DNA from: a virus
Direction: 5' to 3' (one strand)
IMG/VR virus record: IMGVR_UViG_3300036832_001295
Location: 1 to 64,000 of that record
DNA: 64,000 bases
Shown: one piece after another, positions 1 to 42,375 of the stretch
Layout: each line of letters begins with the position of its first letter
How positions within the stretch are numbered: position 1 is the first letter of the stretch
The notes under the pieces: model-generated
What the model was told of the DNA's origin: nothing
Database searches by the model: none
Seen by the model: the letters and a program-made list of their open reading frames with translations, nothing else
Program-made: the position numbers and the translations under genes

Positions 1-41
1 TTCGTGCCCGCCTCCCCTAACCGGACAGCGCCAGACCCCCC

Positions 42-437
42 TTACTGCGGGGCTGCGGGATCCTCGGGATGGGCCGTGGGGTCCTCGGCGGACCGCTCCT
101 GCGACTGCCCCTCGGCGGCAGCCTGATCCTCTTCGGTGGGCACACTCACCGAGGCGGCCTGGGCTGCGGCCTGGTCGGAGGCGGCCTGCAACGCCTCGGC
201 CTGTTCCTCGCTGGTGGCCTGACCGGCCGCGGTGGCCAACGCGTCGGCGCGGGCCTGCGCGAAGACCGGGCTGACCTGGTCGATGTTGCCGCCCTCGGCC
301 TGGGTGCTGTACTGCTGATGCATCCATACCGAGGTGGTCGGCGGGGTGGCCGGTTGGCTGTCCGGCGCGTCTTCGGCGGCCTGCTCTTCGGCGGCGGCTT
401 GCTCTTCGGCGGCGGGTTGTTCTTCGGTCATGGTCAC
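42..437 (-). CDS. hypothetical acidic Ala/Glu/Gln-rich protein
   Basis: 131 aa ORF with GGAG RBS, co-oriented with the head operon; low-complexity EEQAAA repeats. Confidence 0.7.
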   Translation of the reverse strand: MTMTEEQPAAEEQAAAEEQAAEDAPDSQPATPPTTSVWMHQQYSTQAEGGNIDQVSPVFAQARADALATAAGQATSEEQAEALQAASDQAAAQAASVSVPTEEDQAAAEGQSQERSAEDPTAHPEDPAAPQ

Positions 438-9100: not shown

Positions 9101-9304
9101 TCAACGGATGAACTGGCCGGTGATGTCGCTGCGGTAACCGTCCGGTGCGGCCTGGTTCACCTTCTCCCCGGCCCGGCGGTGCACCCGCACGTAACGGATC
9201 GCGCGGGCCCGACTCAGCCCCTCGATCGCCAGCCGTTCCCCGTGCAACACCGCCCAGGAGCCGTCCTGATGAGGTTCCAGCGTCCAGGCCATCAACCGCC
9301 TCAT
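9101..9304 (-). CDS. hypothetical protein
   Basis: 67 aa; ATGA overlap with the upstream gene. Confidence 0.55.
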   Translation of the reverse strand: MRRLMAWTLEPHQDGSWAVLHGERLAIEGLSRARAIRYVRVHRRAGEKVNQAAPDGYRSDITGQFIR

Positions 9305-12300
9305 AGGAACAGCGTCTCGTCCTCCAACGAATGCTCCCCGTCATCGAGCAGATGCTCGTAGTGGGTGCCCTGCACCTGCAGGTCGGTGAAGTTACGGGCC
9401 CGGCCGGTCAGGTTCTCGTTGATCAGCGCCTGCTGCTCGGCGAAGGTGAAGTCCTTCCCGGCCGCCTTCTGCAACACGGTGCGGGCCGCAGCGGCGATCT
9501 GCGCATCGGAGTACTCCGCCCCGGCCCGTGACCCACCCGAGCCGTTCATCGCCCGCTGCCGTTCGCTCTGCGGCGGCGGCGGGGCATCGTGCATCAGTGC
9601 CTGCCCGCCGGAGGTCGCCCAGAACGCGGCGACCACCGGGTCGACCGCACCCTGGATGCGCAACGCGTCGTTGTTGTCGGTGTCGTCGGTCAGGCCCCGG
9701 TCGTCGCCTTCCGGGATGAACGGCGGGCTGTCCTCCGGGTAGCCCCACGGCTGCTCACGCATCGTCTCGATACCGGGCTGCGCGGCATGCTCGACCTGCT
9801 GCTCCGGTCCCGGTTCGCCGATCTCCTCGGTCGTCCCGTCGGTGGACGGCAACGCCGGTTCCGGTTCCTCGTTCAAGGTGGACACCACGTCGAACCCGGC
9901 CCCGCGCAGCCGCCGGTTGCGCTCGATCTGATAGTTGGTGTCGTAGGCGGTGCCTGGTTCGGCCCCCAGTTCGGCCAGCTGGTCGTAGTGGCTGTGCAGA
10001 TGGGTGCTGGTGGACCCGTCGGCGTCCATGTGGTGGCAGGGCACCTTGGTTTGCAGCTGCTGCCGGGCACTGAACGGGCCCTCGAAGGCGTGGCTGCCGT
10101 CACGCCGCTCGTAGGGCCGGTAGGCCCCGCCGTCCGGGCCCAGGTAGATGCTGACACGGCTGATGCCGTGCTTGTACCGGCTCAGCACCGAGGACTGCGG
10201 CTGGCCTTCGTGAAAGGTGGTGCCCGGGTTGTTCTCCATGAACATCCAGCCGTGGTGCTCGGCCGGGGGGATGTCAGAGCGGTGCAGCGGCTCCCAGTTC
10301 ACCGCATACTTCACATCGTCCTGGTGCGCCGCGGCCTCCTGCTCGCGGGCCTGGTCCAGGGAGCGTTGCACGTCCAGGACCGGCGGGGACTCGCCTTCGG
10401 GGTGGGTGGCGGCCTGCTTGCCCCACTTCTGGCCCTGCGACTCCCGGCCCTCCTGGTAACCCTGCGCGTACCGGGTGGCGCGGATGTAGCCGCCCTCACC
10501 CTGTTCGTAGTCGGGCAGCTGGTAGGGCTGGTCGTCAATGGCGTGCGTGAACCCGATCTTCCAGTCCGGGTCGGTGGCCTTCTCCCGCGGGCTCTCCAAC
10601 GCGGCGGTTGTATCGCTCAGCTGCTCATATGTCGGCCCGACCCCGTTACCCCTCACCGATGTGACCGGAGTCACACTCGCCGCCTTCTTGATCTCGTCCC
10701 AGGGGGTGGATTTCACCTCCCGGCGCAACGCCGGGTTGGCCTTCGCGTGCTGAATTGTCCACCAGGCGGCCTGCTCATGGTCGTCGCCGTCCGGGTCGTC
10801 CGGGTTGAGGGTGGCCCGGCCGTCCTTGAAGGAGACCGCCGATTCTTCCGGGACGTGAACCATGTGCAGCACGTAATTGCGATTGCGATGCACACCGGTC
10901 AGATGCCCGCCGGGCGGGAAGGCCTGGCCGACTTCTTCTTCCCATTCGCGGATCGCACCGTGCAGCGAGGTCTGGTCGCCGTCCTCCAACTTGCCGCCGG
11001 GGAATTCCCAAGTGCCCGCGGCCGGGTCGTCCGGATCATGATTACTGCGTTGGATCATCAGGACCCGACCGGTATCGCCCGCCTTCAAACACAGACCGGC
11101 ATGAGTCGGAGGATCGCTTTGGGGCGATCCTCCGTTACTCGCTTGCCTGCCTTGCCATGCCTCGCCCAGCCCAGACGCGCCATGCCTGACCTCGCCGACA
11201 TCATCATAACCGTTTGAAACGGCTTCCCCGTGCGCCGCCGCGTCCCAATGGGTGAACCCGGAGGACACCGCCGAATCCGACCAGTTACCCGGGTCGGCGG
11301 AGGTCGCCCAACCGATGGAAGCCGGGTTCGGTGAGTCCGAATGCGGGGTAGTCGACTGGTACAGCTGCGCCGGGTTGCCGGGCATCAGCGAGTAGTTGTC
11401 GTAGCTGGCGGTGTGCAGGCTGGCGCTGGTCGCCCCGATCGGGTCGGACTGCTGCATGTCCCCGGCGTCCGGGCTCTCATCGCCGACCGGGTCGGTGGTG
11501 GCGGACAGGTCACCGGGCCCGCCCCCGGCCGCGTCGGTGGGGGCCGCCCCGACCTGCACCTGGCCGGTGCCGCCGCAGTGCCCGCAGCCGGAGCCCTCAC
11601 ACTGCGGACACCACACGTAGTTGCCGCCCCACGGCATCCCGTACCCCCAGTCCGGGGCGTGCATCCGGGTGTCGTTGGTGTGGTGCAGCAGGTGCTTCTT
11701 CTTCTGTTTCGCGTCCGACTGGTCCCGTTCGTCCAACCGCGGGATGTCGGTGCCGGGTTCGGCGGCCCCACCCATCGGGTCGGTGGTGGCCTCCTCCTCA
11801 TCGTCATCCTCGTTCTCGTCGTCGTCCTTCTTGGCGGCGAAATGCACCATCCCGGCCGGAACCACCCGACCGTCGGCCAGGGTGCAATCCCCGCCTGGTT
11901 CGACATGCACTAACCGGGCCACCACGCCGTCCACCAGCACGGTCGCGGCGGTCTCGGAGGCAACCGCCCAGGTCAACGACTCCCTGGCGGCCTGGTGGGT
12001 CATTCCCGTGGCCCTGAGGGCCGTCAGGGCCTCCGCCGGGGAGGTCCCTGCGGCCAGTGCCAGCCTGGCCCACTCGTGCGCCGGGGTTAGCTCCGGCTCG
12101 ACCAGGCTGCCCTTGATCCGGACCCGGGAGCGCGGTGTCCACTCGGTGCGCACATTGCCCGGCGGCACGGTACGGCGGGTCAAACCCCGGCCGGGGGCAT
12201 GTTCGGTGGGCCGTTGGTATTCGGTCTGTATCGGGCTGCGTTGGTACTGGCCGGGTAGCCGTTCGGTGTCCGGTTCGACCTCGCGGCCGAACATGCCCTT

Positions 12301-14394
12301 CGAGGCGACCGTGAACCGCAACGCCATGTTGTGGCTGCACGGCCGGTTCTGGAACCGCTTGTACGGCGGGGTGCGTTCCACGTTGGCCCAGGCGCTCCAT
12401 TGGCAGCCACAATGCCAGTACGCCACCCGGCGGGTGCTCGGCAGGTAAGAGAACTCGGTCTCGTAGGTTGCCGTGTCGCCCTGTACCTCACCGACCGCAC
12501 CGGTCGAATTGGCGGCCAGCACCCGAACCTTGCCTTCTTTGCGGAGCCGGACACCCTTGCGACGCACGTCCGCCCAGGAGGCGGTGAACTCGAAGCCGAC
12601 CTGCGGCGGGTCCGGTGCGGGCAACCCGGTGAAGATCGGGTACCCGGCCTCGGCGGTGGCGGCGGCATTCAGGGTGGCCGAATGCACCGTGCCCTCGGCC
12701 TTGATCTTGCGCAGCGCCCGGCCGTACTGGGCCTCGGTGCCCGGGTCGTCGTGGACCCAGTCGTACTCGCCCGCCTTGACCTCGTCCCGGTAGTTGTTCT
12801 TCAGATAGTGGTAGCCCTGGTGCCAGGGTTCGTGGATGGCCACGATCTGCGAGGGCGGCACGTCACCGCGCAGCGTGACGTGGGAGCGGTGACCTTCCAG
12901 GTGCTCGATGTGGTTCTGCAACGAGCCGCCCTGGCCGTAGTGCTCACCGATGTCCAGATCCTTGCCCCGGCTCGGGTCGGCGTGGAACTCGACGTAGGCC
13001 CGGTCATGGAAGGTGTCGGCCCTGGGCACCCCGGCCGCCGCCCACACCTGATCCGGTTCGCCGTAGGTGTGCCCGCGGGCATGACCCCGAACCAGGCCGT
13101 GCTCCCGGATCGAGGGCAGCGCGTCCGGTGAGGTGTAGTGGAAGAGCCGGACATGGCCCTCCGGGATCGGGGCGGTGCCGGGCTCGGGCGGGATCTCCTC
13201 CGGCCCGTTCACCGCCCTGTGCAGCGAGGCATCAAGGTGATGCCGCATGGCCTCCGGATTGTCCATCAGGCAGGAGGAGCAGATGTACTTACCCCCTGGC
13301 GTTTCGCGGAAGTCGTCCTCGTGCTTGTACTTTCCGCAGAAGTCGCACTGCAGGGAGTCGGGGTCGGGTTCCTCGTCGTAGCCGAGCACCTGCAGCACCG
13401 AGTAGTGCTCCAGTCCCTTGGTGGACCAGGTGTCCTCCTCGTCCTGCCGGGCGTCATACCACTTGCGGTGCTGGCGGTACTCCTGCTCCCCCGCGTCGTC
13501 CAGGTCGCCGTAGTCGTTGACCACGTGGTGCTGCATCAACGCTTCCATGTGCGGGTAACGCGGGTTGTCCAGGTGGGCGTTGAACGCGTCATAGGCGGCC
13601 CGCTCGTCCGGCTCCATCCCCGCGTACTCATCGAACTTGGCGTGCACCGCCCGCGGGTCGTTGATGACCGCCCGCGGGTCACCCTGCCGGGACGGGGCGT
13701 TGGCGGAGGAGTTCGGGAATTCCGGCTGCCACTGGATCCCGTCGTCGGTTTTGGCCATCGTGCCGCCGCACTGCGCACACCGGGCCCGTACCCCGCGCCC
13801 GGTGTCCTGGAAGTCCTCGAAGCTCTGGTTGCCGCACCAGGCGCAGGTGTCCGGTTGGCCCAGATCCTCGGTCGCCGGGGTGGCTTCCTCCTGGCTGCGG
13901 TCGATCTTGTCCTGCTGCGGGTCCAGCGTCTGGGTGCCACCCAGGCTCGGGTTGTCCTCCCAGTCCTGGTCCAGCGGCGCGTCCACCCCACCGAGGGAGC
14001 GCAGCGCCGCGTAGACGTGCAGGTTCTCCGGCGGCAGCCGTTCGGACAGGATCGAGCCCAACTCCGGGTAGTAGAAGCTGGCGTCGGAGCCGCCGGAGGC
14101 CTCCGCGGCGGCCGACACCTCATCCAGGGCCGCGGTCAACGCCCCGGCCGCGTTGAGGTCCTCACCCGGTTTGCTGATCTGGCTGGCCAGGTACTGCCCG
14201 CCGCCGACGCCATGGTCCAGGCGCACCTCGTAGGTCTCCGCGCCGTTGAACAGCCCGTCGTAGACCGCGATCACCCGGCCCGGATAACCGTCGGCGATGA
14301 CCGACTCACCGACCTGGTAGTCGTAGTTCGGATCGTCTTCGATGCCGTTGGCGATCGAGGCGGCGGTGCGGTGGAAGTTGTTCCTGCGCGACAT
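9301..14394 (-). CDS. large multi-domain virion-type protein (Zn ribbons, ART-like, SWIM, Nudix)
   Basis: 1697 aa; Nudix box GGKLEDGDQTSLHGAIREWEEEVG; SWIM CGC...CSH; RLFHYT...SIREHGL ART-like start; CxxCxGxG; GGAGG RBS. Confidence 0.8.
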   Translation of the reverse strand: MSRRNNFHRTAASIANGIEDDPNYDYQVGESVIADGYPGRVIAVYDGLFNGAETYEVRLDHGVGGGQYLASQISKPGEDLNAAGALTAALDEVSAAAEASGGSDASFYYPELGSILSERLPPENLHVYAALRSLGGVDAPLDQDWEDNPSLGGTQTLDPQQDKIDRSQEEATPATEDLGQPDTCAWCGNQSFEDFQDTGRGVRARCAQCGGTMAKTDDGIQWQPEFPNSSANAPSRQGDPRAVINDPRAVHAKFDEYAGMEPDERAAYDAFNAHLDNPRYPHMEALMQHHVVNDYGDLDDAGEQEYRQHRKWYDARQDEEDTWSTKGLEHYSVLQVLGYDEEPDPDSLQCDFCGKYKHEDDFRETPGGKYICSSCLMDNPEAMRHHLDASLHRAVNGPEEIPPEPGTAPIPEGHVRLFHYTSPDALPSIREHGLVRGHARGHTYGEPDQVWAAAGVPRADTFHDRAYVEFHADPSRGKDLDIGEHYGQGGSLQNHIEHLEGHRSHVTLRGDVPPSQIVAIHEPWHQGYHYLKNNYRDEVKAGEYDWVHDDPGTEAQYGRALRKIKAEGTVHSATLNAAATAEAGYPIFTGLPAPDPPQVGFEFTASWADVRRKGVRLRKEGKVRVLAANSTGAVGEVQGDTATYETEFSYLPSTRRVAYWHCGCQWSAWANVERTPPYKRFQNRPCSHNMALRFTVASKGMFGREVEPDTERLPGQYQRSPIQTEYQRPTEHAPGRGLTRRTVPPGNVRTEWTPRSRVRIKGSLVEPELTPAHEWARLALAAGTSPAEALTALRATGMTHQAARESLTWAVASETAATVLVDGVVARLVHVEPGGDCTLADGRVVPAGMVHFAAKKDDDENEDDDEEEATTDPMGGAAEPGTDIPRLDERDQSDAKQKKKHLLHHTNDTRMHAPDWGYGMPWGGNYVWCPQCEGSGCGHCGGTGQVQVGAAPTDAAGGGPGDLSATTDPVGDESPDAGDMQQSDPIGATSASLHTASYDNYSLMPGNPAQLYQSTTPHSDSPNPASIGWATSADPGNWSDSAVSSGFTHWDAAAHGEAVSNGYDDVGEVRHGASGLGEAWQGRQASNGGSPQSDPPTHAGLCLKAGDTGRVLMIQRSNHDPDDPAAGTWEFPGGKLEDGDQTSLHGAIREWEEEVGQAFPPGGHLTGVHRNRNYVLHMVHVPEESAVSFKDGRATLNPDDPDGDDHEQAAWWTIQHAKANPALRREVKSTPWDEIKKAASVTPVTSVRGNGVGPTYEQLSDTTAALESPREKATDPDWKIGFTHAIDDQPYQLPDYEQGEGGYIRATRYAQGYQEGRESQGQKWGKQAATHPEGESPPVLDVQRSLDQAREQEAAAHQDDVKYAVNWEPLHRSDIPPAEHHGWMFMENNPGTTFHEGQPQSSVLSRYKHGISRVSIYLGPDGGAYRPYERRDGSHAFEGPFSARQQLQTKVPCHHMDADGSTSTHLHSHYDQLAELGAEPGTAYDTNYQIERNRRLRGAGFDVVSTLNEEPEPALPSTDGTTEEIGEPGPEQQVEHAAQPGIETMREQPWGYPEDSPPFIPEGDDRGLTDDTDNNDALRIQGAVDPVVAAFWATSGGQALMHDAPPPPQSERQRAMNGSGGSRAGAEYSDAQIAAAARTVLQKAAGKDFTFAEQQALINENLTGRARNFTDLQVQGTHYEHLLDDGEHSLEDETLFL

Positions 14395-33002: not shown

Positions 33003-33650
33003 ATGACCGCAGCACCTACTGCTGCTCTGCACATCCCACGCATCAACGTGGAGACCCTGCTGGTGCCGATCCTCGGGACCAGCCCGCTGCTCGTGCACCA
33101 GTGGTCCCAGAAGGCCAAGCTGCAGATGCTCAACGCGCAGCAGGGCATCAAGACCATCAAGGAACCCCGCGACCCGCAGTCGGAGTACGAGGCCAGCCTG
33201 TACCGGGCCGGGGACGACGGCTACGGCATCCCGTCGGTCGCCTTCAAGGCGGCCACCGTGTCCGCGGCCCGCGTCTACGGCAAGGCGGTCCGGATGACCG
33301 AACTGCGCCAGTTCCTGTTCTTCCGCGGCAAGATGTACAAGGGCAACAACGGCAAGTTCAGCTGCAACCAACAGCTGTTCCTGCTCGACGGCACCCCGCA
33401 GATGCGCGAAGACATGGTCACCGTCGGCATCTCCGGCACCGACCTGCGCTACCGGGGCGAGTTCACCGAGTGGTCGACCACGCTGACCGTCGAGTACATC
33501 AAGTCCTCGATCACCAAGGAGTCGGTGCTCGGCATCATCGAGGCGGCCGGAACCACCGTCGGGGTCGGCGAGTGGCGGCCGGAGAAGGACGGCGAGTTCG
33601 GCACCTTCAAGCTCGACCCGTCCCGTGAGGTGCAGGTCATCTCGGCATGA
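33003..33650 (+). CDS. RAMP/Cas7-like protein, putative effector of the GGY-NN repeat system
   Basis: 215 aa from ATG 33003 with strong RBS; RAMP-like layout ILGTSPLLVH, YGIPSVAFKAA and C-terminal G-rich loop GVGEWRPEKDGEFGTF. Confidence 0.8.
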   Translation: MTAAPTAALHIPRINVETLLVPILGTSPLLVHQWSQKAKLQMLNAQQGIKTIKEPRDPQSEYEASLYRAGDDGYGIPSVAFKAATVSAARVYGKAVRMTELRQFLFFRGKMYKGNNGKFSCNQQLFLLDGTPQMREDMVTVGISGTDLRYRGEFTEWSTTLTVEYIKSSITKESVLGIIEAAGTTVGVGEWRPEKDGEFGTFKLDPSREVQVISA

Positions 33651-34015
33651 GCGGCGACCCGCAGCAGTGGTTGCGGACGGAGTTGAAGGGGGTGCGCGTC
33701 CGGCAGGGCGCGCTCACCCCGGCCACGTTGCTGGCTGACGTGACCCAGACCGGCCCGACGCATCCGCTCTATGACCGGTTCCTGTGGTCGGTGGACACGC
33801 CGCAGGACAAGGCCCAACTGGCCCGCATGCTGATCCACGAGGCCCATCCGGAGCAGGCCTGCCGCCAGGCCACCCTGGACGAGGTACAGGCCGGGTTCGC
33901 CCGGCTGGGGTTTTCCACCGGCAGCTTGCAGACCAACTACCACCGTGAGGACCACATTCTGTTCACGGTGGACGACGCACAGCGGCTGCTGGCCGCATTA
34001 GGGGGACAGTCATGA
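33647..34015 (+). CDS. accessory protein, divergent paralog of 34012..34467
   Basis: ATGA-coupled; GALTPATLLA...HPLYDRFLW. Confidence 0.75.
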   Translation: MSGDPQQWLRTELKGVRVRQGALTPATLLADVTQTGPTHPLYDRFLWSVDTPQDKAQLARMLIHEAHPEQACRQATLDEVQAGFARLGFSTGSLQTNYHREDHILFTVDDAQRLLAALGGQS

Positions 34016-34467
34016 GCTTCTCCGCCTACGAGGCGCAGCGGGAACTGATCACGCAGCTGGAAGAGGTTCGCGAACACCGCGGCGAACTGACCCCGCAGGC
34101 GGTGTTGGCCGAGGTCGAGGAGACCGGCAAGCGGCACCCGCTCTACGACCGGTTCGAGTGGAACAACCGGGTCGCCGGGCACGGCTACCGCCTCGACCAG
34201 GCGCACCGGCTGATCATGTCCGTGAAGGTGATCTTCCGGGGACCGACCGACGAGGAACGCAAGATCCGCAAGTACGTCGCGGTGCCGCAGCCGATGGCCC
34301 ACCAACCCAACTACGAGCCGATCGAGGACGTCGCGATGGACGACCTGAAACGCAAGCTGGTGCTGCAGGACGCGGAACGGCGCTGGAAGGCGTTGCGGAC
34401 CCAGTTCGGCCACCTGCAGGAGTTCATCGACCTGGTGCTGGGCGACCTGAACGGCAAGGCCAGCTGA
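34012..34467 (+). CDS. accessory protein of the RAMP-like operon
   Basis: ATGA-coupled; GELTPQAVLA...HPLYDRFEWNN...YRLDQAHRLI. Confidence 0.8.
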   Translation: MSFSAYEAQRELITQLEEVREHRGELTPQAVLAEVEETGKRHPLYDRFEWNNRVAGHGYRLDQAHRLIMSVKVIFRGPTDEERKIRKYVAVPQPMAHQPNYEPIEDVAMDDLKRKLVLQDAERRWKALRTQFGHLQEFIDLVLGDLNGKAS

Positions 34468-34470
34468 GCT

Positions 34471-34554
34471 AAACACGCTCGGCCAGGTGCCGATCGTGTT
34501 TGTCGAGATCCGGGATGCCCAACCGCGGGGGAGGGAGCATCCCGGATCTTCGGC
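34471..34554 (+). other. two stem-loops forming the array leader
   Basis: AAACACGcTCGGC-caggt-GCCGAtCGTGTTT (34471-34501) and GATCCGGGATGC...GCATCCCGGATC (within 34502-34554). Confidence 0.7.
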
Positions 34555-34561
34555 GTCTGCG

Positions 34562-34957
34562 GGCAGGGCTTGGTTCGGCACGGTTCGGCACGGCAGGGCT
34601 GGGCAGGCACGGCAAGGCTGGGCCCGTCGAGGTTCGGCGTGGCAAGGCCCGGCAGGCCAGGCAGGGTGTGGCACGGCACGTCGTGGCGGGGTTCGGCAGG
34701 GCTGGGCAGGCAAGGCGAGGCACGGCATGGCACGGCCTGGCGCGGCCGGGCAGGCAAGGCGTGGATGGCCCGGCGGGACGTGGCAAGGCGGGGCAGGCAC
34801 GGCTTGGTTGGGCACGGCAGGGCTAGGTTCGGCATGGCGGGGCAGGCAGGGCTTGGTGCGGCCAGGCGCGGTTGGGGTTGGCGCGGTGCGGCGGGGCAGG
34901 CGTGGCACGGCTTGTCATGGCTGGGCAGGGCTGGTCTTGGCGCGGCGTGGCAGGCTG
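34562..34957 (+). repeat. GGY-NN pentamer array 1 (putative guide ncRNA, about 8 units)
   Basis: period-5 GGC/GGT plus a variable dinucleotide, interrupted every 8-10 pentamers by GGCA. Confidence 0.9.
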
Positions 34958-34999
34958 TGCCGAACAGGTCAAACGGTGATCTGGTTAGGGGGAATCGGG

Positions 35000-35446
35000 A
35001 TGAAGATTCATACGCTGTTGGCGTTGGCCGCGGCCGGGGTGTGCACCGCCGGAATGGTGGTCTTCGCGGCACCGGCCTCGGCGGCGCAGTCGGAGTTGAC
35101 CCTCAACTGCACCGGCCTCGGCATGGTGACGGTGGCGACCAACAACAACAACTCATCCGAGCACGGTGGTTGGGGCGCGGCGCAGACCGTGAACATTCCC
35201 GGGCACGGTATCGCGACCTCGTTCTCCGGCACGATTACCGACCTGGTGACCGGCACCAGCGTGAGCTTCACCCAGGTCAAGGGCAACGGCAACGCCAACC
35301 AGAACACCACCGGGCAACCCACCATGTGCTCACAGACGATCACCGGCACGGTGGTCGACTTCACCGGGGGGTTCATCCCGCCGGGCATGTCGGGCTCTGA
35401 CCCGGCCACCTTCATGCTCACGGTGGGCGTGATTTACAAGGCCTGA
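35000..35446 (+). CDS. secreted protein embedded between the two arrays
   Basis: 148 aa; Sec signal MKIHTLLALAAAG...AAPASA-A; two Cys in the mature part; GC3-rich codons. Confidence 0.8.
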   Translation: MKIHTLLALAAAGVCTAGMVVFAAPASAAQSELTLNCTGLGMVTVATNNNNSSEHGGWGAAQTVNIPGHGIATSFSGTITDLVTGTSVSFTQVKGNGNANQNTTGQPTMCSQTITGTVVDFTGGFIPPGMSGSDPATFMLTVGVIYKA

Positions 35447-35449
35447 CTC

Positions 35450-38300
35450 GGCAGGCAGGGCTTGGCGGGGCATGGTTCGGCGCGGCATGGCACGGTGTGG
35501 CAGCCAGGGCACGGCGCGGCACGGCACGGCCTGGCTCGGCGCGGCAGGCGCGGCGCGGCGCGGCGGGGTCGGGCCCGGCCTGGTGCGGCGAGACATGGCG
35601 CGGCGAGGCAGGCATGGTGTGGCTCGGCCTGGCTCGGCAAGGCAGGGCAGGCACGGCATGGTTGGGCTCGGCGCGGTTGGGCGTCGCAGGGCTTGGCAGG
35701 CAGGGCGAGGTGTGGCGGGTCCAGGCATGGCGCGGCAGGCATGGCCCGGCGCGGCTCGGTACGGCAAGGTGGGGCGTGGCAGGCGGGGTTGGGTTCGGTT
35801 TGGCATGGCGCGGTTGGGCACGGCACGGCTCGGCAGGCGTGGCTTGGCGTGTCGAGGCGGGGCTGGGTTCGCTGGGCCAGGCGGGGCAGGGCAGGCGTGG
35901 CTGGGCGGGTTCCGGCAAGGCAAGGCATGGCCAGGCAGGCACGGCCCGGTTCGGTATGGCACGTCGTGGCCAGACTTGGCTTGGCAGGCGTGGCTTGGTG
36001 TGGCACGGCCGGGTCAGGCACGGTTGGGCGCGGCAGGCTCGGCGAGGCGTGTCATGGCAAGGCTCGGCTAGGTAGGGCACGGCAGCCGAGGCCTGGTGAG
36101 GCAGGGCAACGCGAGGCATGGCTAGGCCCGGCAGTCGGGGCGTGGCATGACCCGGTGTGGCAGGTCACGGCAAGGCGTGGCGCGGCAGGCACGGCTAGGT
36201 CGGGCGCGGATCGGCGTGGCATGGCGTGGCAGCTAAGGCGCGGCGGGGCACGGCACGGCTGGCTAGGCAAGGCTCGGCCCGGTGCGGCATGGCAGGTCAG
36301 GGCAGGCGTGGCAGGGTGCGGCAGGGTCAGGCGCGGCAGGGCTAGGCGGGGCTTGGCAGGCAAACGTGGTTTAGCTGGGCCCGGCGTGCCGGGGCACGGT
36401 GGGGCGTGGCAGGCAGAGCAAGGCTCGGCTTGGTTCGGCGTGGCATGGCAGGCAGGGCTAGGCAAGGTATGACAAGGCTGGGTGCGGCATGGCGTGGCTG
36501 GCATTCGTGGTTTGGCTGGGCGGGCCGCGGCGGGGCAGGCAAGGCATGGCTTGGCATCGCATGGTGTGGCTCGGCTAGGCGCGGCAGGGCAGGCAGGCGA
36601 GGCCGGGCAGGCAGGGCTGGATTCGGCCGGGCATGGCTTGGCGCGGTTTGGCAGGCAAGGCAGGCATGGTGAGGCACGGCAGGGCACGGCGCGGCTAGGC
36701 GCGGCAGGCGAGGCAGGGCCCGGCTAGTCCAGGTGCGGCGGGTCGCGGCCGGGTTCGGCAGGGCAGGCTCGGTTGGGCTGGGCGGGGCGTGGTTTGGCAA
36801 GGCAGGGTTGGGCACGGCAGGCAGGCAGGGCGTGGTTGGGCTCGGGCGGCTGGGCACGGCAGGGCAGGCACGGCGGGTCCGGGCGAGGCTCGGCAAGGTC
36901 CGGCCTGGCGGGGTAGGGCCTGGCAGGCGAGGCGGGGTGTGGCGGGGCCTGGCGGGTCAAGGCACGTCATGGCGCGGCAGGCATGGCGAGGCAGGGCTTG
37001 GTCCGGCAGGGCACGTCCCGGCTTGGCTTGGCAGGCTCGGCCAGGCGCGGTTGGGCGAGGCATGGCAAGGCAGGGCTCGGCCAGGCAGGCATGGCCCGGC
37101 GAGACCCGGCTCGGCTCGGTGCGGCATGGCGCGGCATGGCAGGCAGGGCGCGGCGCGGCCAGGCGAGGCCGGGCTTGGCTCGGTCCGGCCTGGCGAGGCG
37201 AGGCAGGCATGGCCCGGTATGGCACGGTGCGGCACGTCCCGGCGTGGTATGGCAGCCGAGGCCCGGCTTAGCGTGGCAGGTCTTGGCGAGGCCTGGTGTG
37301 GCACGGCAAGGCAGGGCGTGGCAGGCATCGCGTGGTGTGGCACGGCCCGGTGGGGCACGGCTTGGCAGGCATCGCACGGCGCGGCATGGCAGGTCGAGGC
37401 AAAGCCTGGCGGGCACGGCAGGCATGGCCCGGTCCGGTTCGGCACCGCACGGCGGGGCATGGCAGGCATGGTTCGGCTTGGCGTGGTGTGGTGGGGCACG
37501 GCAGGGCACGGCAGGCAGGGCTCGGCGTGGTTCGGCACGGCACGGTGTGGCGTGGCTTGGCGGGCAGGGCTCGGCCGGGTTGGGTACGGCGTGGTCAGGC
37601 GAGGCGCGGCGCGGTGTGGCAGGCAGGGCTCGGTACGGCGGGGCATGGCAGGGTGTGGCTAGGCCCGGCGGGCATGGCATGGCGCGGCAAGTCCAGGCGA
37701 GGCGCGGCGAGGCGTGGCGAGGCGAGGCGAGGCAGGCAAGGCAAGGTCGGGCAGGGCACGGTATGGCCCGGTGTGGTTGGCATGGCGCGGCATGGCAGGC
37801 AGGGCGCGGCAGGCTGGGCTCGGCACGGCTAGGCGCGGCTCGGCAAGGCGTGGTGGGGCAGCCGGGGCTGGGCGAGTTGGGCATGGCCGGGCGCGGCGTG
37901 GCAGTCCAGGCAGGGCAGGACGAGGCAGGGCTAGGCGCGGCTTGGCAGGGCAGGCTTGGCCCGGCGGGGCATGGTTGGGCTAGTCAAGGTCGGGCATGGC
38001 AGGCAGGGCAGGGCTTGGCCCGGCAACGCAGGGCTTGGCCCGGCGCGGCAGGCACGGCAGGGTTAGGCGGGGCGGGGTCCGGCTAGGCCTGGCAGGCAAG
38101 GCGGGGCAGGTCCCGGCTTGGTTGGGCACGGCTCGGCGCGGCAGGCGTGGCAGAGTTCGGCGAGGCTAGGCGTGGCAAGGCCCGGCTAGGCAGCCACGGC
38201 GGGGCCTGGCCAGGCATGGCAAGGTGAGGTGCGGCGCGGCATGGCAGGCGTGGCTTGGCGTGGCACCGTGTGGCCACGCGTGGCACGGCACGGCAGGCTC
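35450..38300 (+). repeat. GGY-NN pentamer array 2 (putative guide ncRNA, roughly 55-60 units by hand estimate)
   Basis: about 2.85 kb of period-5 GGY-NN with GGCA (occasionally GGCT/GGCG) punctuation; strong G skew; no coherent ORF. Confidence 0.92.
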
Positions 38301-38317
38301 GGAAAACCGGGCCTGCC
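38292..38317 (+). terminator. stem-loop closing the array
   Basis: GGCAGGCTCGG-AAAA-CCGGGCCTGCC, 11 bp stem with one G-U pair, at a convergent junction; no U-tract. Confidence 0.65.
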
Positions 38318-38320
38318 CGC

Positions 38321-38494
38321 TCACCCCTCGCTGTCGCTGCACCCCACGTCGCGGTACTCCACCTCGGTCGTCTGGCTCGGCGGGTCCACCTGCGGGTAGT
38401 CGTAGTCCTCGACCAGGTCGAAGCGTTCCTCCTCGTAGGAGGTCTCCGGCGGCGGCGGCTCCTCGGTCGGCTCCGGGATCGGCACCTCGCTCAT
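38321..38494 (-). CDS. small acidic protein
   Basis: 57 aa from ATG 38494 with GGGAGAG RBS. Confidence 0.55.
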   Translation of the reverse strand: MSEVPIPEPTEEPPPPETSYEEERFDLVEDYDYPQVDPPSQTTEVEYRDVGCSDSEG

Positions 38495-38504
38495 CGTCTC
38501 TCCC

Positions 38505-39299
38505 TCAGTAGGTGAACAGCCGGGTCCAGTCGCCCCGCCACACCTGGCCGACATGCTTGCTGCGCGGGGTGTGCTTCTTCTGCCACTTGGTCACCGCGGC
38601 GGTAGTAGTTGCTCCGTAGACGCCCGGGGTCCACTTGCCGCCGAAGCCGAGGGCCGCCAGCCGGTTCTGGATGGCCTGGATGTCCGGGCGTTCGGCGACG
38701 TAGTAGCCGCCGTGGCTGGTGTTCGGCCCGGCGATCGGCCCGAAGTAGTGGCCCTTCTTCATGTAGGAGGGCCAGCGGCGGCGCAACTTCTTCTCCTTGC
38801 CCGGTTTGGCCGGTGCCTTGGGGGCCGAACCCTGCCCGCAGAAGACCTGCGCGACCCGCTGCCAGGCGGGTCCGTCGTTGACGTAGGCGCGGTGCCCGGA
38901 CAGATGCACGTGCCAAAGATGTGATTTGTCCGAACTGACCCATTTCAGGGTCTGCACGTCCAGCCCGGTGACGTCCTTGCCGTTGACGGTGCCGAAGAAC
39001 TCGCGCAGCGTCTGCATCCGCACGTCGTGCGCCTTGGCGGCGTTGATCAGCCGTTGGGTGACCTTGCGCATCTGCGCCGCGGGCAGCGTGACGTCCAGGG
39101 CGGACGCGGCCTGCCCGTCGCCCTTGCGGTCGATCGGTTGGGTCACCGAATAGTCGTCCTTGGGCAGCACGTCCCGGCAACGGTGGTAGCCGTAGGCGTG
39201 GCTGCGGTCCCCGACGATGCCGGACAGCTGCGCCTGCGGGATGAAATGGTGGATGGTGTTGTAGGCCGCCTGGATCGCCTGCGGGGCATATTCGCTCAT
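38505..39299 (-). CDS. second lysin: putative Zn peptidase (M15-like) plus peptidoglycan-binding domain
   Basis: GYH...ALDV...HLWHVHLS metal ligands; C-terminal DIQAIQNRL...GVYGATTTAAVTKWQ...GQVW PG-binding pattern. Confidence 0.75.
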   Translation of the reverse strand: MSEYAPQAIQAAYNTIHHFIPQAQLSGIVGDRSHAYGYHRCRDVLPKDDYSVTQPIDRKGDGQAASALDVTLPAAQMRKVTQRLINAAKAHDVRMQTLREFFGTVNGKDVTGLDVQTLKWVSSDKSHLWHVHLSGHRAYVNDGPAWQRVAQVFCGQGSAPKAPAKPGKEKKLRRRWPSYMKKGHYFGPIAGPNTSHGGYYVAERPDIQAIQNRLAALGFGGKWTPGVYGATTTAAVTKWQKKHTPRSKHVGQVWRGDWTRLFTY

Positions 39300-39314: not shown

Positions 39315-39557
39315 TCAGCCCACACCGTCACCGGGCAGGGCAACCGTAACCCGGCCTCCCGTTATCCACTGCCCCCAGACCGACCTGATCCGGGGACCGG
39401 GCGGCGGCAGCACCGGCACCTCGACGTTGACCAGCGCCCGGCAGCACCGGCAGCGGTACTCCCGGTAGGCGGCACCATCCAGCGTGATGCAGGACCGCTC
39501 GTCACTGTCCAGGTCCTGCTGCCCGCAGTTCGGGCAGACCGCGCCGATCTCACACAT
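39315..39557 (-). CDS. small Cys-rich zinc-ribbon protein
   Basis: CPNCG...CRCC; GTG start overlapping the portal end. Confidence 0.5.
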   Translation of the reverse strand: MCEIGAVCPNCGQQDLDSDERSCITLDGAAYREYRCRCCRALVNVEVPVLPPPGPRIRSVWGQWITGGRVTVALPGDGVG

Positions 39558-42375
39558 CCTCTTCCTCTTCCTCCTCGTCGCCGTAATGGGTGTCCCCGGC
39601 CAGCTTCGGCACCGCGGAGGTGTCCAGATACTTGCGCATTCCGTACACCTTCGGGTCCCCGAAACGCCCGGTCGGCCGGTAATGGGTCGGGTCGTCTTCC
39701 TCGGAGTTGTCCGGGGCGATCCAGTGCCGTTTGGTGACCACGCTGATGCCGAAGCGCTGCCCCGGCTGGTACCCGGCCAGCTTGCTCAGCTTGGCCGCCT
39801 TCTTCCGGGGCCGTTTGCCGTCCTTGTTGTCCTTCGGCGCGTCCTCGCGCTCCTCGTCGGACTCCTCCGGGCCGGACTCCTGGCCGGGCATCGGGGCGGG
39901 CAACCCCAACGCCGGGTTGCCGACCGGCGGGGCGTTGATGTCGCCTTGCTCGGCCATCATCGCCTGCTCCGGGTCCGGCGACATCACCGGGTTGTCGTCC
40001 ACCCCCATGCCCAGCGAAGGCACCGCCGCGTCGTTGGCGTTGTAGACCGGCGAGGGCTGGCTGCCCGCCTCGATCGCCTTCGGGGCGAAGTCGGCGGCCA
40101 GGTCCGCCGGGATCGGGTAGCCCTCCCGTTGCAGGGACTGGAAGATCTTGCGGCGGGTGTCCTGCTCGGCGACCGCCAGGGCCACCGCCTCCTCGCTACG
40201 CTGCTCGATGGCCTCGTTGAACTCGATGCCGGTGGTGGACAGCCGCTGCTTGTACGGGATCGGCACCCCGGCCGCGGCGAGGGTCTCCACGAACTGCCGC
40301 TCGGTCTCCTCATCGGAGATGTTCAGCGTCTTGAAGGTCAGCCGCGGGATCAGCAGCTTGGGCTGTTCGATGATGCGTTCCTCGCCGGACTCCTCGTCTA
40401 TCTCATAGATCTCCTCGGTGATCAGGTACCGTTTCCCGCCGCGCACCTCGTAGTCGAAATGCTCCTGCGCCTCGGCGACGATCGCGGCCCGGTCGAAGAC
40501 GAACTTGGCCAGCATCCGCTGGTAGTGGGTCAGCAGCTGGGTGACCACATCCCTGTTCAAGGCATCCGCGGCGTAGGTCTCCCCGGCCTGCGCGCCGGTC
40601 AGCATCGTCTGAGACAGCCCGAACACCATCAAGATCCGTTCGGTGATCCGGTCGAAGTCGTTGGACAGGTCCGGCACGTTCTCCCGGCCGAAGACCGGCT
40701 GCATGTCGATCGCCCAGTGGTAGGTCAGCACCCGGAAATCGGCGGCCAGCGCCGCGTCCAGGGAGGCGTTGAACTCCTCCATGTCCTCCTGAGTGGGGAT
40801 CCACGGGGTGCCGGTGCCCAGGTCCTGCGCGGTCGCGCCCAGCTTGGTCAGGATCAGCGGGGTGTAGAGCCGATCGGCGATGGAGTCCAGCGCGGAGTTC
40901 AGCATCTCCTCCTGGATGATCATCCGGAAGGCCCGCATCAGCAGCGGGATGCCACGGTTAGAAAACCGGTCGGCCTTGAACCGCAGCTGCTTCAGGATGA
41001 TGTTGGAGACGGGCATCAGCGCGTCTTCCTGGGCGTAGTTCAGCAGTTCCGGGAACTGCCGGACCAGCTGCGTGTACTGCCAGTGCGGGGTGCGGCTGGT
41101 GAGCACCTTGCGCAGCGACTCGGGCAGCCGCATCAGGTACCGCGGGTCGTTCAGGAACAGCGACTTCTCGATCTCCACGTCATCCGGGTTGATCAGTTCG
41201 TCGGCTTCCCAGACGCCCAGCGTGTCGTTCCAGCCGCCCAGCGCCCAGGACTCGCCGGACAACCAGTACTCGGTGCCCAGGTCGAGCAGGAAGTCCTCGA
41301 AGTTCAGCTGGTCGAAGAACAGGTCGGAGTAGAAGTCGATCAGCTGCTGGTCCTGGCATTCGAAGGCCATGCCCTGCATCGGCAGCTTGGAGTAGACGTC
41401 GATGCAGGCCGGGATCACCGGGTGGGTGACGTAAAGCAGGCGGCAGTTCTTGGACTGGTAGCCCCAGGCGACGTAGTTGCCGGTGCTGGTCTGCATGCTG
41501 ATCACGGTGGCGGTGCCCGCGTCGGTAACCGAGAGCACCTTGTCCGGCCCGCCGTGCGGCAGGGTGTACCAGCGCCCGACCGCGTTCATCCCGGACTCCA
41601 CCGAAGACAGCCCGAACAGTTCGTCGCCTTCGTTGGCGACGAAGTACTCGGTAGTGATCTTGCCGGTGTCGATCGGGTGACCGCGCAGGTCGACCTGCTG
41701 ACGGCCGAACCACGGGTTGAACCAGCGGTGGTCGGGGGTGCAGGTGATGACCTGGCCGGAGGCCATGGTCAGCTTCACCACCGGCACGTCATCGCGGGAC
41801 AGAGTGGCCAGCACGGTGGCCGGGAGGTAGTGCACGCCCAGCCCGCCGTTGCTGTGCAGCGTGTACTTCCAGCCCTGCACCGCATCGCCGGGGGTGATCT
41901 CACCCAGCGGTTTGGAGGTGCCGTCGGCCATCAGGATCGGCGCGTCCGGGGTATTGCAGAACTCCCGGATCCGTTCCAACTCGACCGGGTCGGTGAAGTT
42001 GAAGGGCAGGTTGTTCTGCCGCCAGTACCACATCGGGTCACGCGGGCGGGCGGTGGCGATCTGCATCGAGCCACCGGTCCCGTAGGCCGCGGTGCGGCGC
42101 ATCGACGTGCCGACCGCCCGGGAGCCGCTCAGCCGGTTGTTGATGGTGCGCTCGGGCAGGTGCGGGGCCCCGAACGGCAACCCGGCAGGGGTGCGCTGGT
42201 CGGACTCGCGGACCCGCCGGGTCGCGACCCGGCGCGGCGACGCGATGTTGGCTCCGGTGCCGGGCAGGTCCGGCAGCGGCACCCGGCGGCCCCGCCGGTC
42301 GGTCACGGAAAAGTCGGCCACGTTACTTCGCGGCCCCAGCCGGGTGACGGGCAGCGGGTCGCCCGCTAGGTTCAC
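39550..42375 (-). CDS. portal protein (Bxz1-like) containing an intein; exact start uncertain
   Basis: RPRDPMWYW, IDVYSKLP, RGIPLLMRAFR, IADRLYTPLIL.KLG and ALAADFR recognised from cluster C portals. Confidence 0.88.
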   Translation of the reverse strand: MNLAGDPLPVTRLGPRSNVADFSVTDRRGRRVPLPDLPGTGANIASPRRVATRRVRESDQRTPAGLPFGAPHLPERTINNRLSGSRAVGTSMRRTAAYGTGGSMQIATARPRDPMWYWRQNNLPFNFTDPVELERIREFCNTPDAPILMADGTSKPLGEITPGDAVQGWKYTLHSNGGLGVHYLPATVLATLSRDDVPVVKLTMASGQVITCTPDHRWFNPWFGRQQVDLRGHPIDTGKITTEYFVANEGDELFGLSSVESGMNAVGRWYTLPHGGPDKVLSVTDAGTATVISMQTSTGNYVAWGYQSKNCRLLYVTHPVIPACIDVYSKLPMQGMAFECQDQQLIDFYSDLFFDQLNFEDFLLDLGTEYWLSGESWALGGWNDTLGVWEADELINPDDVEIEKSLFLNDPRYLMRLPESLRKVLTSRTPHWQYTQLVRQFPELLNYAQEDALMPVSNIILKQLRFKADRFSNRGIPLLMRAFRMIIQEEMLNSALDSIADRLYTPLILTKLGATAQDLGTGTPWIPTQEDMEEFNASLDAALAADFRVLTYHWAIDMQPVFGRENVPDLSNDFDRITERILMVFGLSQTMLTGAQAGETYAADALNRDVVTQLLTHYQRMLAKFVFDRAAIVAEAQEHFDYEVRGGKRYLITEEIYEIDEESGEERIIEQPKLLIPRLTFKTLNISDEETERQFVETLAAAGVPIPYKQRLSTTGIEFNEAIEQRSEEAVALAVAEQDTRRKIFQSLQREGYPIPADLAADFAPKAIEAGSQPSPVYNANDAAVPSLGMGVDDNPVMSPDPEQAMMAEQGDINAPPVGNPALGLPAPMPGQESGPEESDEEREDAPKDNKDGKRPRKKAAKLSKLAGYQPGQRFGISVVTKRHWIAPDNSEEDDPTHYRPTGRFGDPKVYGMRKYLDTSAVPKLAGDTHYGDEEEEEEDV
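41446..41958 (-). mobile_element. mini-intein (171 aa, no endonuclease) in the portal
   Basis: starts CNTPDAPILMADG, block B CTPDHRW, ends TGNYVAWGYQSKN followed by +1 Cys; removal gives RIREF-CRLLYVTH. Confidence 0.88.

Follow-up and report, generated by a model that had tools for sequence, protein, structure and literature searches.

What is specified by phage DNA in which GGC recurs at five-base steps over 3.3 kb, and does any one segment of it address a recognizable gene? The question is sharpest at positions 37255–37319 of the window (the whole stretch of DNA analysed, 64,000 nucleotides of IMG/VR record IMGVR_UViG_3300036832_001295), where the original prediction had read the SxN motif of a PLD-family nuclease. 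We assign this segment, with a probability of about 0.87, to one guide unit of a phage-borne VIPR (Viral Interference Programmable Repeat) system; no target of it was found in the collections searched. The carrier is an uncultured high-GC phage, probably with Mycobacteriales hosts. VIPR was described only in 2026, with natural targets known for few Enterobacteria and Pseudomonas clades, and this locus places it in a line of actinophages; the cultured relatives, which are Gordonia and Mycobacterium phages, have the system without annotation.

Results

Two pentamer arrays beside a Cas7-like gene

The locus runs on one strand in the order vipr, small ORF, vap-like gene and two blocks of GGY-NN pentamers.

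33003..33650, + strand: vipr gene, 215-aa Cas7-like RAMP protein; start taken from the sequence, RBS taggagg upstream
33647..34015, + strand: ORF of 122 aa that follows vipr and precedes the vap-like gene; no assignment by Pfam/PHROG
34012..34467, + strand: vap-like accessory gene, 151 aa, phrog_15946; homologues beside arrays, 15 ORF rows
34502..34554, + strand: hairpin just 5′ of array A; RNA fold −38.6 kcal/mol, z −5.67, 0/200 shuffles as good
34562..34963, + strand: vrRNA array A; 9 units of GGY-NN pentamers, from the parse
35000..35446, + strand: 148-aa ORF between the arrays, from translation; N-terminal signal-peptide-like stretch
35440..38305, + strand: vrRNA array B; about 66 units of the form (GGY-NN)n plus a 4-nt GGCA step, from the parse; staggered layout, as the accessible part of the VIPR preprint describes it
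37255..37319, + strand: focal guide unit; 13 in-register GGY-NN pentamers, from direct reading and an independent dynamic-programming parse
38287..38321, + strand: terminator-like hairpin ending array B; RNA fold −25.7 kcal/mol, z −4.85, 0/200 shuffles as good

The pentamer periodicity is far beyond chance. On the + strand between 34501 and 38500, GGC follows GGC at 5-base spacing 35–54 times per 500 nt, where the median for the rest is 0; the complementary GCC spacing occurs 0–1 times in the same bins. Over the whole 85.7-kb record, (GGCNN)6GGC gives 14 forward matches, no reverse and no control match. The two arrays together comprise 75 units on a single strand, spanning 3.3 kb; 57 units have at least seven pentamers, with a range of 7–13 and a mode of 9. 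GGC (390) and GGT (86) account for 476 of the 531 anchors (90%), and 63 of the 75 units close with the step GGCA. Within array A, which begins 95 bp past the vap-like gene, successive GGCs are spaced by 5 nt in 40 cases, by 10 nt in 12 and by 4 nt in 8. The end of array B is convergent with an endolysin-like ORF on the minus strand (38505–39299). The arrays lie near portal and lysis genes. A megablast of the 30–42 kb region against cultured phages returned no match, and comparison of the guides with 621 pentamer runs of other loci yielded two shared pairs, versus 0–2 in shuffles.

Homologues of Vipr adjoin GGCNN arrays at IMG/VR loci (44 ORF rows), in Gordonia phage Ecliptus and at 29 cellular loci. 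The AF2 model of the protein (pLDDT 90.5) gave 60 matches at E ≤ 0.001 in a Foldseek search of the PDB, the best being 6xn3_F (E 2e-5), and all of the matches listed are chains of CRISPR effector complexes (Csm, Cmr-beta, type III-D and type VII). The alignment of homologues displays the G-loop pattern GxGExRP..G..G.F, represented here by GVGEWRPEKDGEFG, with G187, R192 and G200 invariant among 27 homologues. The 122-aa ORF has no Pfam or PHROG match and weak phmmer matches (2e-4 and 4e-4) to two ORFs in other array-bearing loci (L035 and L080). The 148-aa ORF, with no Pfam or PHROG match and no homologue in other array loci, is outside the core system.

Probable assignment to VIPR

Two features place the locus with VIPR: a stand-alone Cas7-like RAMP protein with a G-loop outside any CRISPR context (from the model, the PDB matches, the alignment and a TRF run that found no CRISPR-like repeat), and tandem GGY/NN (YNNGG) pentamer units next to its gene. 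The invariable structured 3′ tail that follows each repeat tract in the type II architecture is absent, and a 4-nt GGCA separates the units instead. In staggered arrays, according to a figure legend in the accessible part of the preprint (fig. S18 of 10.64898/2026.04.26.720920), unit borders are set by a 1-nt overlap or register shift, with no tail; tail-less units fit this architecture, and their lack of a tail therefore argues against type II, not against VIPR.

The published code, as the same accessible part gives it, is a target of the form xNN xNN, with x mostly the wobble base (10.64898/2026.04.26.720920). The original reading, in which each NN supplies codon bases 1 and 2, coincides with this "1-nt skip" rule. 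A second preprint, likewise in its accessible part, assigns one Vipr protomer to each repeat (10.64898/2026.04.26.720927). By analogy with this published mechanism, the arrays would be transcribed and each pentamer bound by one Vipr protomer, with GGY hidden. The exposed NN dinucleotides would then base-pair with double-stranded DNA at two positions in every three, so that a unit of 13 pentamers would read 13 codons whatever their wobble positions, and target binding would silence transcription. The −1 register shift at the 4-nt GGCA would delimit the units in place of a structured tail, as the staggered arrangement in the accessible preprint text suggests.

Several results count against VIPR. 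No structured 3′ tail or ribozyme follows the units, an Rfam search giving nothing near threshold; no sigma-70-like promoter was found at the locus; and three of the 13 anchors of the focal unit are degenerate (GCC, AGC and GTC). The vap accessory genes of VIPR systems encode a DNA-interacting fold; the vap-like protein here (AF2 pLDDT 87.9) has no significant fold match in the PDB, where winged-helix-like rows are weak (E > 0.5 only). Neither the focal unit nor units 37142, 36867 and 37563 have an exact target in IMG/VR.

It is highly improbable that the pentamer region is something other than a guide array, whether a G-rich satellite prone to R-loops, an array that serves packaging or binds protein, or low-complexity coding sequence. 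The GC skew of 0.29–0.33 at 36–38 kb and the proximity of the portal and lysis genes would suit such an origin, but all six frames across the region are interrupted and no long ORF covers it, GGY-NN arrays accompany homologues of a single Cas7-like protein in phages of 44–70% GC, and two units (36926 and 37514, below) have in-frame matches to conserved coding motifs. Other ideas entertained at first were an RNA-binding array like that of TRAP, a pac/TerS array, a Chi decoy, and an origin resembling an R-loop or switch region; all were dropped given the Cas7-like neighbour and the VIPR papers.

The focal unit and its DNA-level matches

The focal unit is 65 bases long and reads gccGA ggcCC ggcTT agcGT ggcAG gtcTT ggcGA ggcCT ggtGT ggcAC ggcAA ggcAG ggcGT. 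The 13 pentamers originally proposed, with NN = GA CC TT GT AG TT GA CT GT AC AA AG GT, are thus exact, by direct reading and by the parse alike. A 4-nt GGCA step flanks the unit on both sides (37251–37254 and 37320–37323), so that its limits are natural. At 13 pentamers it is the longest in the array, tied with one other, against the mode of 9. Reverse-complementing the NN and taking them as codon bases 1 and 2 gives the antisense decoding TL[FL]VT[RS]S[KN]LT[KN]GS; the peptide first proposed, TLFVTSSNLTNGS, is permitted by this decoding, but is one choice at four two-way boxes.

The exact target pattern of the focal unit was found in none of three large collections (viral, genome and metagenome), and at up to three mismatches it occurred in 0 of 401 genomes and 0 of 92 Gordonia-genus genomes. 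IMG/VR likewise gave no match to pentamers 4–13, to pentamers 1–10, or to the full unit with pentamer 9 wild-carded (G for T allowed). Among 30 PLD loci from 26 Gordonia-genus genomes the best match was 17/26, a score that 69% of shuffled guides equal or exceed in the same loci (mean of shuffled bests 16.9); real drmC sites match at 16–17/26 and the PLD-SNF2 gene of genome G001 at 15/26. In these loci no PLD-family DNA rose above the level of shuffled guides. Across the PLD loci, genomes and collections examined, no PLD gene has an NN match of at least 80%. The central nine pentamers have 27 exact metagenome sites (16 distinct), which extend to 18–21/26 only. The 10 longest open frames over these sites include UDG, H+-PPase, LacI and AAA proteins, among others, and none is a PLD.

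Resemblance to the DrmC motif

Most PLDs have G where the DrmC motif has T. That the form hhh(G/T)SxNLT follows HxK in DrmC is borne out by four Gordonia-genus proteins (for example ISFITSANLTSAA and DVLLTSANMTNAA) that PADLOC calls DrmC at E 1e-97 to 1e-53. The focal decoding carries the corresponding post-HxK motif, hhh[GT]SxN[LFM][TS], which was chosen post hoc. Against a PSSM of the DrmC motif built from 147 DrmC representatives, the focal unit scores 12.8 bits, the top of 57 guides and well clear of the next-best at 5.5; random guides do as well with P 4.5e-4 and shuffled arrays with P 0.024, for a family picked post hoc. The regular expression hh[GT]SxN[LIVMF], a motif also picked post hoc, gives P 0.024 as well. 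Since the PLD family was picked after the peptide had been seen, P = 0.024 needs correction for all recognizable motifs. Among the 147 diverse representatives, identity reaches 8/13 residues at best, as in TLFITSANLTDYA and QLFVTSANLTGAA. In 400,201 aa of Gordonia-genus open frames, the top three antisense matches are all HKD sites, in two kinds of PLD protein, and the sense decoding scores equally or higher at random sites of the same set.

The decoding fails to agree with the invariant residues of DrmC (TSAN and an Ala six positions on). Ala occupies position 7 in 147/147 and in 119/119 sequences and position 13 in 144/147, and at both the focal decoding has Ser, each one base away (TC vs. 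GC). BLOSUM scoring against 13 DISARM proteins ranks the unit 9th of 57 (p 0.06). Of the shuffled arrays, 58% contain the loose motif [GT]SxN, and none of the 114 decodings (both orientations of the 57 units) has the canonical GSxN. The proposal that the unit represents a PLD SxN motif is partly supported: the unit is the best of 57 guides against the DrmC profile, but it has no PLD target in the DNA searched and misses the invariant Ala. We give a PLD-family gene about one chance in three of being the true target.

Neighbouring guides

Two further units have candidate targets.

36926..36975, + strand: unit of 10 pentamers; sense decoding [DE]GVGLG[KN]T[IM]A, that is SNF2 motif I
37514..37558, + strand: unit of 9 pentamers; antisense decoding [KN]TTVV[DE]T[DE]L

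Unit 36926, 330 bp from the focal unit, matches drmD of a complete DISARM operon in frame at 18/20 NN. At up to two mismatches it has 22 places in 17 of the 92 Gordonia-genus genomes, against none for the reversed-pattern control, and 20 of these 22 places read AD[DEA]VGLGKT[IM][EV] in long open frames. At up to one mismatch, none of 301 family genomes holds a match better than 18/20. In Jumbo and Camerico, the two Gordonia phages whose SNF2 helicases were checked, the match is worse (14/20). The SNF2 decoding originally noted in this neighbourhood is therefore upheld, real SNF2/DrmD genes matching the unit at 18/20.

In three of the 92 genomes, unit 37514 matches the motif KTTVADTEL in frame at 17/18; the control gave no match. 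The three target frames are homologous (699, 721 and 672 aa within the loci; full ORFs of 806, 797 and 764 aa), making the candidate target a gene of sporadic occurrence, about 780 aa long, whose Pfam likeness to NTPases is weak and below family cut-offs. VIPR guides match their natural targets under the 1-nt skip at no less than 80% NN, the skipped base falling mostly at wobble; units 36926 and 37514 have in-frame matches at this level, and the focal unit has none in the searches described above. Unit 37142 was absent at up to three mismatches from the 92 genomes.

A common island for these targets could not be demonstrated. The 380,593 bases around the SNF2 matches hold two further stringent guide matches against 0.5 expected, a count that 2 of 30 shuffles reach. 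On contig C38 of genome G001, units 36926 and 37514 match two neighbouring genes in an Hma-like operon. The other two genomes have the 37514 target in a different setting, where ORFs of at least 200 aa within about ±10 kb show neither an SNF2 nor a PLD motif. No general enrichment of the guides for DISARM proteins was seen (mean best score 26.44 vs. 26.01 ± 0.43 for decoy sets). The suggestion that guides were acquired from defence islands finds no support, and the accessible parts of the VIPR preprints give no acquisition mechanism. The 57 guides have 11 matches at 80% NN or better in the phage's own genome, against 9–19 for shuffled guides, and 79 in 489 kb of array-bearing loci, against 51–82. 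Since the own-genome count is within the shuffled range, no excess of self-targeting was seen, though the cut-off is a loose one that short guides can reach by chance.

Discussion

What the focal unit is aimed at may be weighed among three readings. We see an even chance that its PLD look is coincidental and that the true target is some other gene, carried by a competitor (phage, prophage or satellite) absent from the searched collections. The natural targets named in the accessible part of the preprint are of this kind, being satellites, prophage regulators and other VIPR systems (10.64898/2026.04.26.720920). With 114 decodings to compare and no fixed limit to the motifs that could be recognized, a single motif-like peptide is to be expected; the shuffled-array frequency of [GT]SxN and the missing GSxN agree with this, as do the core-nine metagenome sites, and the three other long units without an IMG/VR match make missing targets the rule here. 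Harder to reconcile with coincidence are the outlying DrmC-profile score of the focal unit among the guides, the robust match of its neighbour 36926 to a defence-associated helicase motif, and the poorer match of that neighbour to the SNF2 genes of Jumbo and Camerico.

The doubtful alternative is that the unit is aimed at the HKD/TSxN catalytic motif of a DrmC-type PLD gene, belonging to DISARM or a related system in a host or mobile element, and that together with unit 36926 it silences a defence operon by RNA-guided repression. The decoding has the DrmC form F-V-T-S-x-N-L-T, with the 8/13 identity, the top PSSM score and the three HKD sites described above, and DrmC and DrmD, the latter matched by unit 36926, belong to the same system by their PADLOC names. 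Against this stand the two Ser residues at invariant Ala positions, PLD DNA matches at the level of shuffled guides, the BLOSUM rank, a sense decoding that does as well or better at random sites, and the empty searches of the 401 and 92 genomes and the three collections. Repression would also be of little help to a lytic phage where the defence proteins are already present at infection. Improbably, the unit may instead be a decayed, non-functional member of a fast-turnover array, its NN string specifying nothing: three of its anchors are not GGY, it is long for the array and no target was found, but its register holds over 13 pentamers and both GGCA borders are intact.

Whichever of these applies to the focal unit, its place as one guide of a VIPR array is the reading we prefer. 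Beyond it, we consider it unlikely that part of the guide repertoire is aimed at conserved catalytic motifs of host defence genes and not at rival phages. The candidates would be unit 36926 (DrmD-like SNF2 motif I), the focal unit (DrmC PLD motif) and unit 37514 (the ~780-aa gene). If this were true, VIPR would be an RNA-guided, wobble-proof anti-defence weapon besides an inter-phage one; with an invariant motif as its target, a single guide would serve against many alleles and many hosts, and the case could be tested in tractable hosts (M. smegmatis and Gordonia terrae). In the literature searched, no publication joins "vrRNA" with "DISARM" or "SNF2". If the PLD reading is coincidental, the locus is an ordinary further VIPR array.

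Comparison with known systems

The focal decoding shares with DISARM DrmC the F-[VI]-T-S-x-N-L-T of its HKD-motif context; unlike DrmC it has Ser at two invariant-Ala positions, and drmC DNA reaches at most 17/26. With the Cas7 family of class 1 CRISPR (Csm3, Cmr4 and type VII Cas7), Vipr shares the fold (Foldseek E 2e-5, TM about 0.5) and a glycine-rich loop at 8–15% sequence identity, whereas the locus has no CRISPR repeats, no other cas genes and a periodicity of 5 nt, not 6 nt.

Type II VIPR, known from Escherichia phage SUSP1 and a Pseudomonas fulva prophage in the accessible part of the preprint (10.64898/2026.04.26.720920), has the same repeat code. At the level of the motif only, GEWRP of the present Vipr resembles the D177-W178-R179 contacts reported for SUSP1 Vipr in the available text of the structural preprint (10.64898/2026.04.26.720927). 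Compared with type II as described there, the locus differs in having no conserved 3′ tail or pseudoknot per guide, a host of another phylum, and an accessory protein that is unrelated as far as compared. With the staggered arrays outlined in the accessible text the locus shares a Cas7-like Vipr gene, a conserved small neighbour gene, phage-borne GGY/NN units, and units that are set apart by overlapping or shifting register by 1 nt, with no tail. The published units reported in that text have 9–16 pentamers, against 7–13 (mode 9) here. The present locus also departs from the staggered examples in size, with 75 units in two blocks over 3.3 kb, a guide repertoire more than 10 times that of the SUSP1 locus with its four vrRNAs in the same text, and in the unrelated ORF between the blocks.

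Among cultured actinophages, Vipr is 55–58% identical to homologues in Gordonia phages Ecliptus (58%), ODay, Pipp and UmaThurman, and 41% identical to those in 27 Mycobacterium phage records; all are annotated "hypothetical protein". Ecliptus has an array of about 240 bp only, between gene 19 and gene 20, in the order vipr, array, ORF, and its gene 20, downstream of the array, resembles the vap-like gene by eye.

Anatomy of the array

GGC recurs at 5-nt intervals on the + strand only between positions 34501 and 38500 of the window (35–54 pairs per 500 nt; median 0 elsewhere). A dynamic-programming parse divides this region into 75 units, in which consecutive GGY-NN pentamers are followed by a 4-nt closing step; in 63 units the step reads GGCA. 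Units of at least seven pentamers number 57 (nine pentamers in 21, eight in 13, ten in 11, twelve in four, eleven in three, seven in three and thirteen in two). Within these 57, 476 of 531 anchors are GGC or GGT, and the NN right after the closing step begins with A in 36. No ORF spans the array. Three same-strand genes lie directly upstream, and strong hairpins, possibly terminator or processing signals, bracket the whole guide region. The features are:

33003–33650, +, vipr gene (215 aa) with a good RBS
between the 215-aa and 151-aa genes, +, 122-aa ORF
34012–34467, +, vap-like gene (151 aa), phrog_15946
34502–34554, +, hairpin (−38.6 kcal/mol, z −5.7) separating the vap-like gene from array A
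35000–35446, +, 148-aa ORF with its own RBS, between the two vrRNA blocks
38287–38321, +, hairpin (−25.7 kcal/mol, z −4.9) closing array B, opposite the endolysin gene
38505–39299, −, endolysin-like gene
39550–42375, −, portal
14–31 kb, collagen/YadA-like tail fibres

The 148-aa ORF has an N-terminal signal-peptide-like stretch (MKIHTLLALAAAGVCTAGMVVFAAPASA...), no Pfam or PHROG match and no homologue at other array-bearing loci; it is possibly a moron gene. The units at 35987–36031 and 38247–38291 (+), separated by 2.2 kb, share their first four NN (GT TT GT AC; decoding V[FL]VT...) and are possibly related, with targets in a single gene family.

The parent IMG/VR record is linear, 85.7 kb long and 62% complete by CheckV; the window is its first 64 kb, has a G+C content of ~68% and contains phage structural genes. 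No SNF2 or PLD gene was found in the record. Two very large ORFs, 9301–14394 (−) and 4632–9053 (−), encode unusual virion-associated giants of 1,697 and 1,473 aa. A NUDIX domain lies inside one of them, and an N-terminal stretch of the other matches phrog_18299 (head maturation protease) and the larger, unannotated phrog_2774. Inside ORF 4632–9053, far from the array locus, TRF gives six copies of the 10-nt unit CGAGGCGTGG, equal to two GGC-NN pentamers, at 8259–8318; they may be either chance repeats in coding sequence or a solo run resembling a guide.

A Vipr-like protein is linked to such arrays

A scan of IMG/VR for (GGCNN)7GGC returned at least 139 stretches on contigs of 40–73% G+C, most of those listed carrying one-strand arrays of 80–1,570 bp. 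Homologues of the 215-aa protein recurrently adjoin IMG/VR arrays (at least 44 ORF rows at E ≤ 1e-3), as do those of the 151-aa protein (at least 15 ORF rows). The structural model of the 215-aa protein (pLDDT 90.5) shows a Cas7-like fold: Foldseek gave 60 PDB matches at E ≤ 0.001, every one listed being a chain from a CRISPR effector complex (Csm, Cmr, type III-D or type VII), and the protein has a conserved G-loop.

Its relatives in cultured phages, all annotated as hypothetical, are found in Gordonia phages (55–58% identity) and in 27 Mycobacterium phage records (41%); the nearest cellular copy (60%) is in an uncultured Gordonia MAG. In Gordonia phage Ecliptus (OP820472; retrieved locus L148, 2980–4293), vipr is followed by a ~240-bp GGY-NN array, situated between genes 19 and 20, and then by gene 20, whose ORF by eye resembles the 151-aa protein. 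With Ecliptus and 33 other cultured Gordonia/Mycobacterium phage records encoding unannotated Vipr homologues, the SEA-PHAGES collections hold lab-tractable systems of this kind.

The focal unit and its resemblance to DrmC

Direct reading and the parse agree that 37255–37319 coincides exactly with one 13-pentamer array unit, whose NN list is that of the original prediction. Read antisense by codon boxes, it gives TL[FL]VT[RS]S[KN]LT[KN]GS, which had been taken for the SxN motif of a PLD-family nuclease such as DrmC. No exact match to its pattern exists in IMG/VR, among 185,579 species genomes or in JGI metagenome records, and none at ≤3 mismatches in 401 genomes from the Gordonia MAG's order or 92 from its genus; looser patterns (pentamers 4–13, pentamers 1–10, or all 13 with pentamer 9 wild-carded) are likewise without match in IMG/VR. 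The central nine pentamers occur at 27 metagenome loci of 34–55% G+C, which extend to only 18–21 of 26 positions, the chance level; the ten longest open frames over them include UDG, H+-PPase, LacI, MotA, AAA_25 and NACHT, and none is PLD. Three other long units of the array also lack a match in IMG/VR, so the missing target is not peculiar to the focal unit.

Among 114 decodings of the array, canonical GSxN does not occur, the loose [GT]SxN occurs once (0.87 expected) and the tighter hh[GT]SxN[LIVMF] once (P = 0.024). In 26 Gordonia-genus genomes there are 30 PLD loci (PF13091 matches), including four small single-HKD proteins (ISFITSANLTSAA, DVLLTSANMTNAA, ILLLTSANFSFSA, IVLLTSANFSYSA) called DrmC by PADLOC (E 1e-97 to 1e-53); their motifs establish that the predicted T-for-G variant is real and DrmC-typical. 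The DrmC consensus is LAFITSANLTSAA (119 contexts from the 120 best-listed homologues). The focal decoding agrees with those contexts at 4–7 of 13 residues, and with 147 representatives (50% clustering) at 8 of 13 at most, as in TLFITSANLTDYA.

A DrmC-type PLD gene as the true target is a tentative proposal, for which a PSSM of the 147 contexts argues: the focal unit tops the guides at 12.8 bits, the next scoring 5.5 (P = 4.5e-4 per random 13-pentamer guide, 0.024 per shuffled array). However, the PLD family was picked only after the peptide had been seen, and positions 7 and 13, invariant Ala in DrmC, are Ser in the focal decoding. In DNA comparisons, real drmC sites agree at only 16–17 of 26 positions, and the best match over all 30 PLD loci is 17, shuffled guides averaging 16.9. 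BLOSUM scoring against 13 DISARM proteins places the focal unit 9th of 57 (p = 0.06), and its sense decoding scores equally at arbitrary sites. Overall the PLD reading is partly supported. We consider it about an even chance (roughly 0.5) that the likeness is accidental, the target being in an unsampled mobile element; decay of the unit is improbable.

Neighbouring units match conserved motifs

Two neighbouring units match conserved coding motifs in frame. Unit 36926–36975 (10 pentamers) has the sense decoding [DE]GVGLG[KN]T[IM]A, which corresponds to SNF2 helicase motif I, and is the array's strongest target lead. It matches motif I of a drmD in frame at 18 of 20 positions, an unplanned result of the DISARM test set; the operon is complete (MTase, DrmD, DrmMI, DrmA, DrmB and DrmC, names as output by PADLOC). 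The terms "SNF2 motif I", "HKD motif" and "DISARM class 1" follow general usage. At ≤2 mismatches the unit has 22 matches in 17 of the 92 Gordonia-genus genomes (reversed pattern, 0), 20 of them at AD[DEA]VGLGKT[IM][EV] within long open frames of SNF2 type, DrmD-like and other. No match of 19/20 or better was found in 301 family genomes, and the SNF2-like helicases of two Gordonia phages examined reach only 14/20.

Unit 37514–37558 matches KTTVADTEL in frame at 17 of 18 positions in 3 of the 92 genomes (control, 0). The targets are homologous, sporadic proteins of ~780 aa, weakly AAA/STAND-NTPase-like, in three retrieved loci:

L277, 5422–7713
L287, 9580–11970
L288, 9712–12129

In the Gordonia MAG this gene adjoins the helicase of an Hma-like operon (ATPase, methylase and PLD-SNF2 helicase), and that helicase bears a unit 36926 site; the focal unit does not match the PLD domain of that helicase (15/26). 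In the other two genomes the target is situated elsewhere. SNF2 neighbourhoods totalling 380,593 bases yield 2 other stringent guide matches (0.5 expected), and the guides as a set show no enrichment for DISARM proteins; the proposal that targets of neighbouring units lie together in one island is therefore unsupported.

Comparison with published VIPR systems

In the 2026 preprints, VIPR (Viral Interference Programmable Repeat) combines Vipr, a small RAMP protein, with the accessory gene vap and with vrRNAs built of 9–16 YNNGG repeats. Through its NN dinucleotides the vrRNA pairs with either strand of dsDNA, and in each repeat one base is skipped, usually at the wobble position of a codon; an NN match of ≥80% qualifies a target, and seven types are distinguished (10.64898/2026.04.26.720920). 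The original NN decoding is this same pairing rule. Each repeat is bound by one protomer, with GGY sequestered (10.64898/2026.04.26.720927); anti-satellite function and solo vrRNAs have been shown (10.64898/2026.10.15.759431), and 99 VIPR-like 5-nt clusters recovered (10.64898/2026.10.21.760802).

By extension from these preprints, the + strand of the array would be transcribed and Vipr would polymerise along the transcript, the −1 register steps delimiting filaments; NN-directed dsDNA binding would then repress transcription. An anti-defence reading is weakened because defence products pre-exist at infection, and silencing their genes would presumably give a lytic phage little help. We found no literature pairing "vrRNA" with "DISARM" or "SNF2"; the lead that some guides are aimed at conserved defence-gene motifs is not in print in the literature searched, except that the preprints' supplements may list such targets.

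We assign the locus to the VIPR systems with staggered arrays. The 4-nt GGCA step between its 5-nt units amounts to the layout described for the staggered type (10.64898/2026.04.26.720920). The kind is known from the 2026 preprints, to whose staggered type this locus adds a new and very large member from an actinophage.
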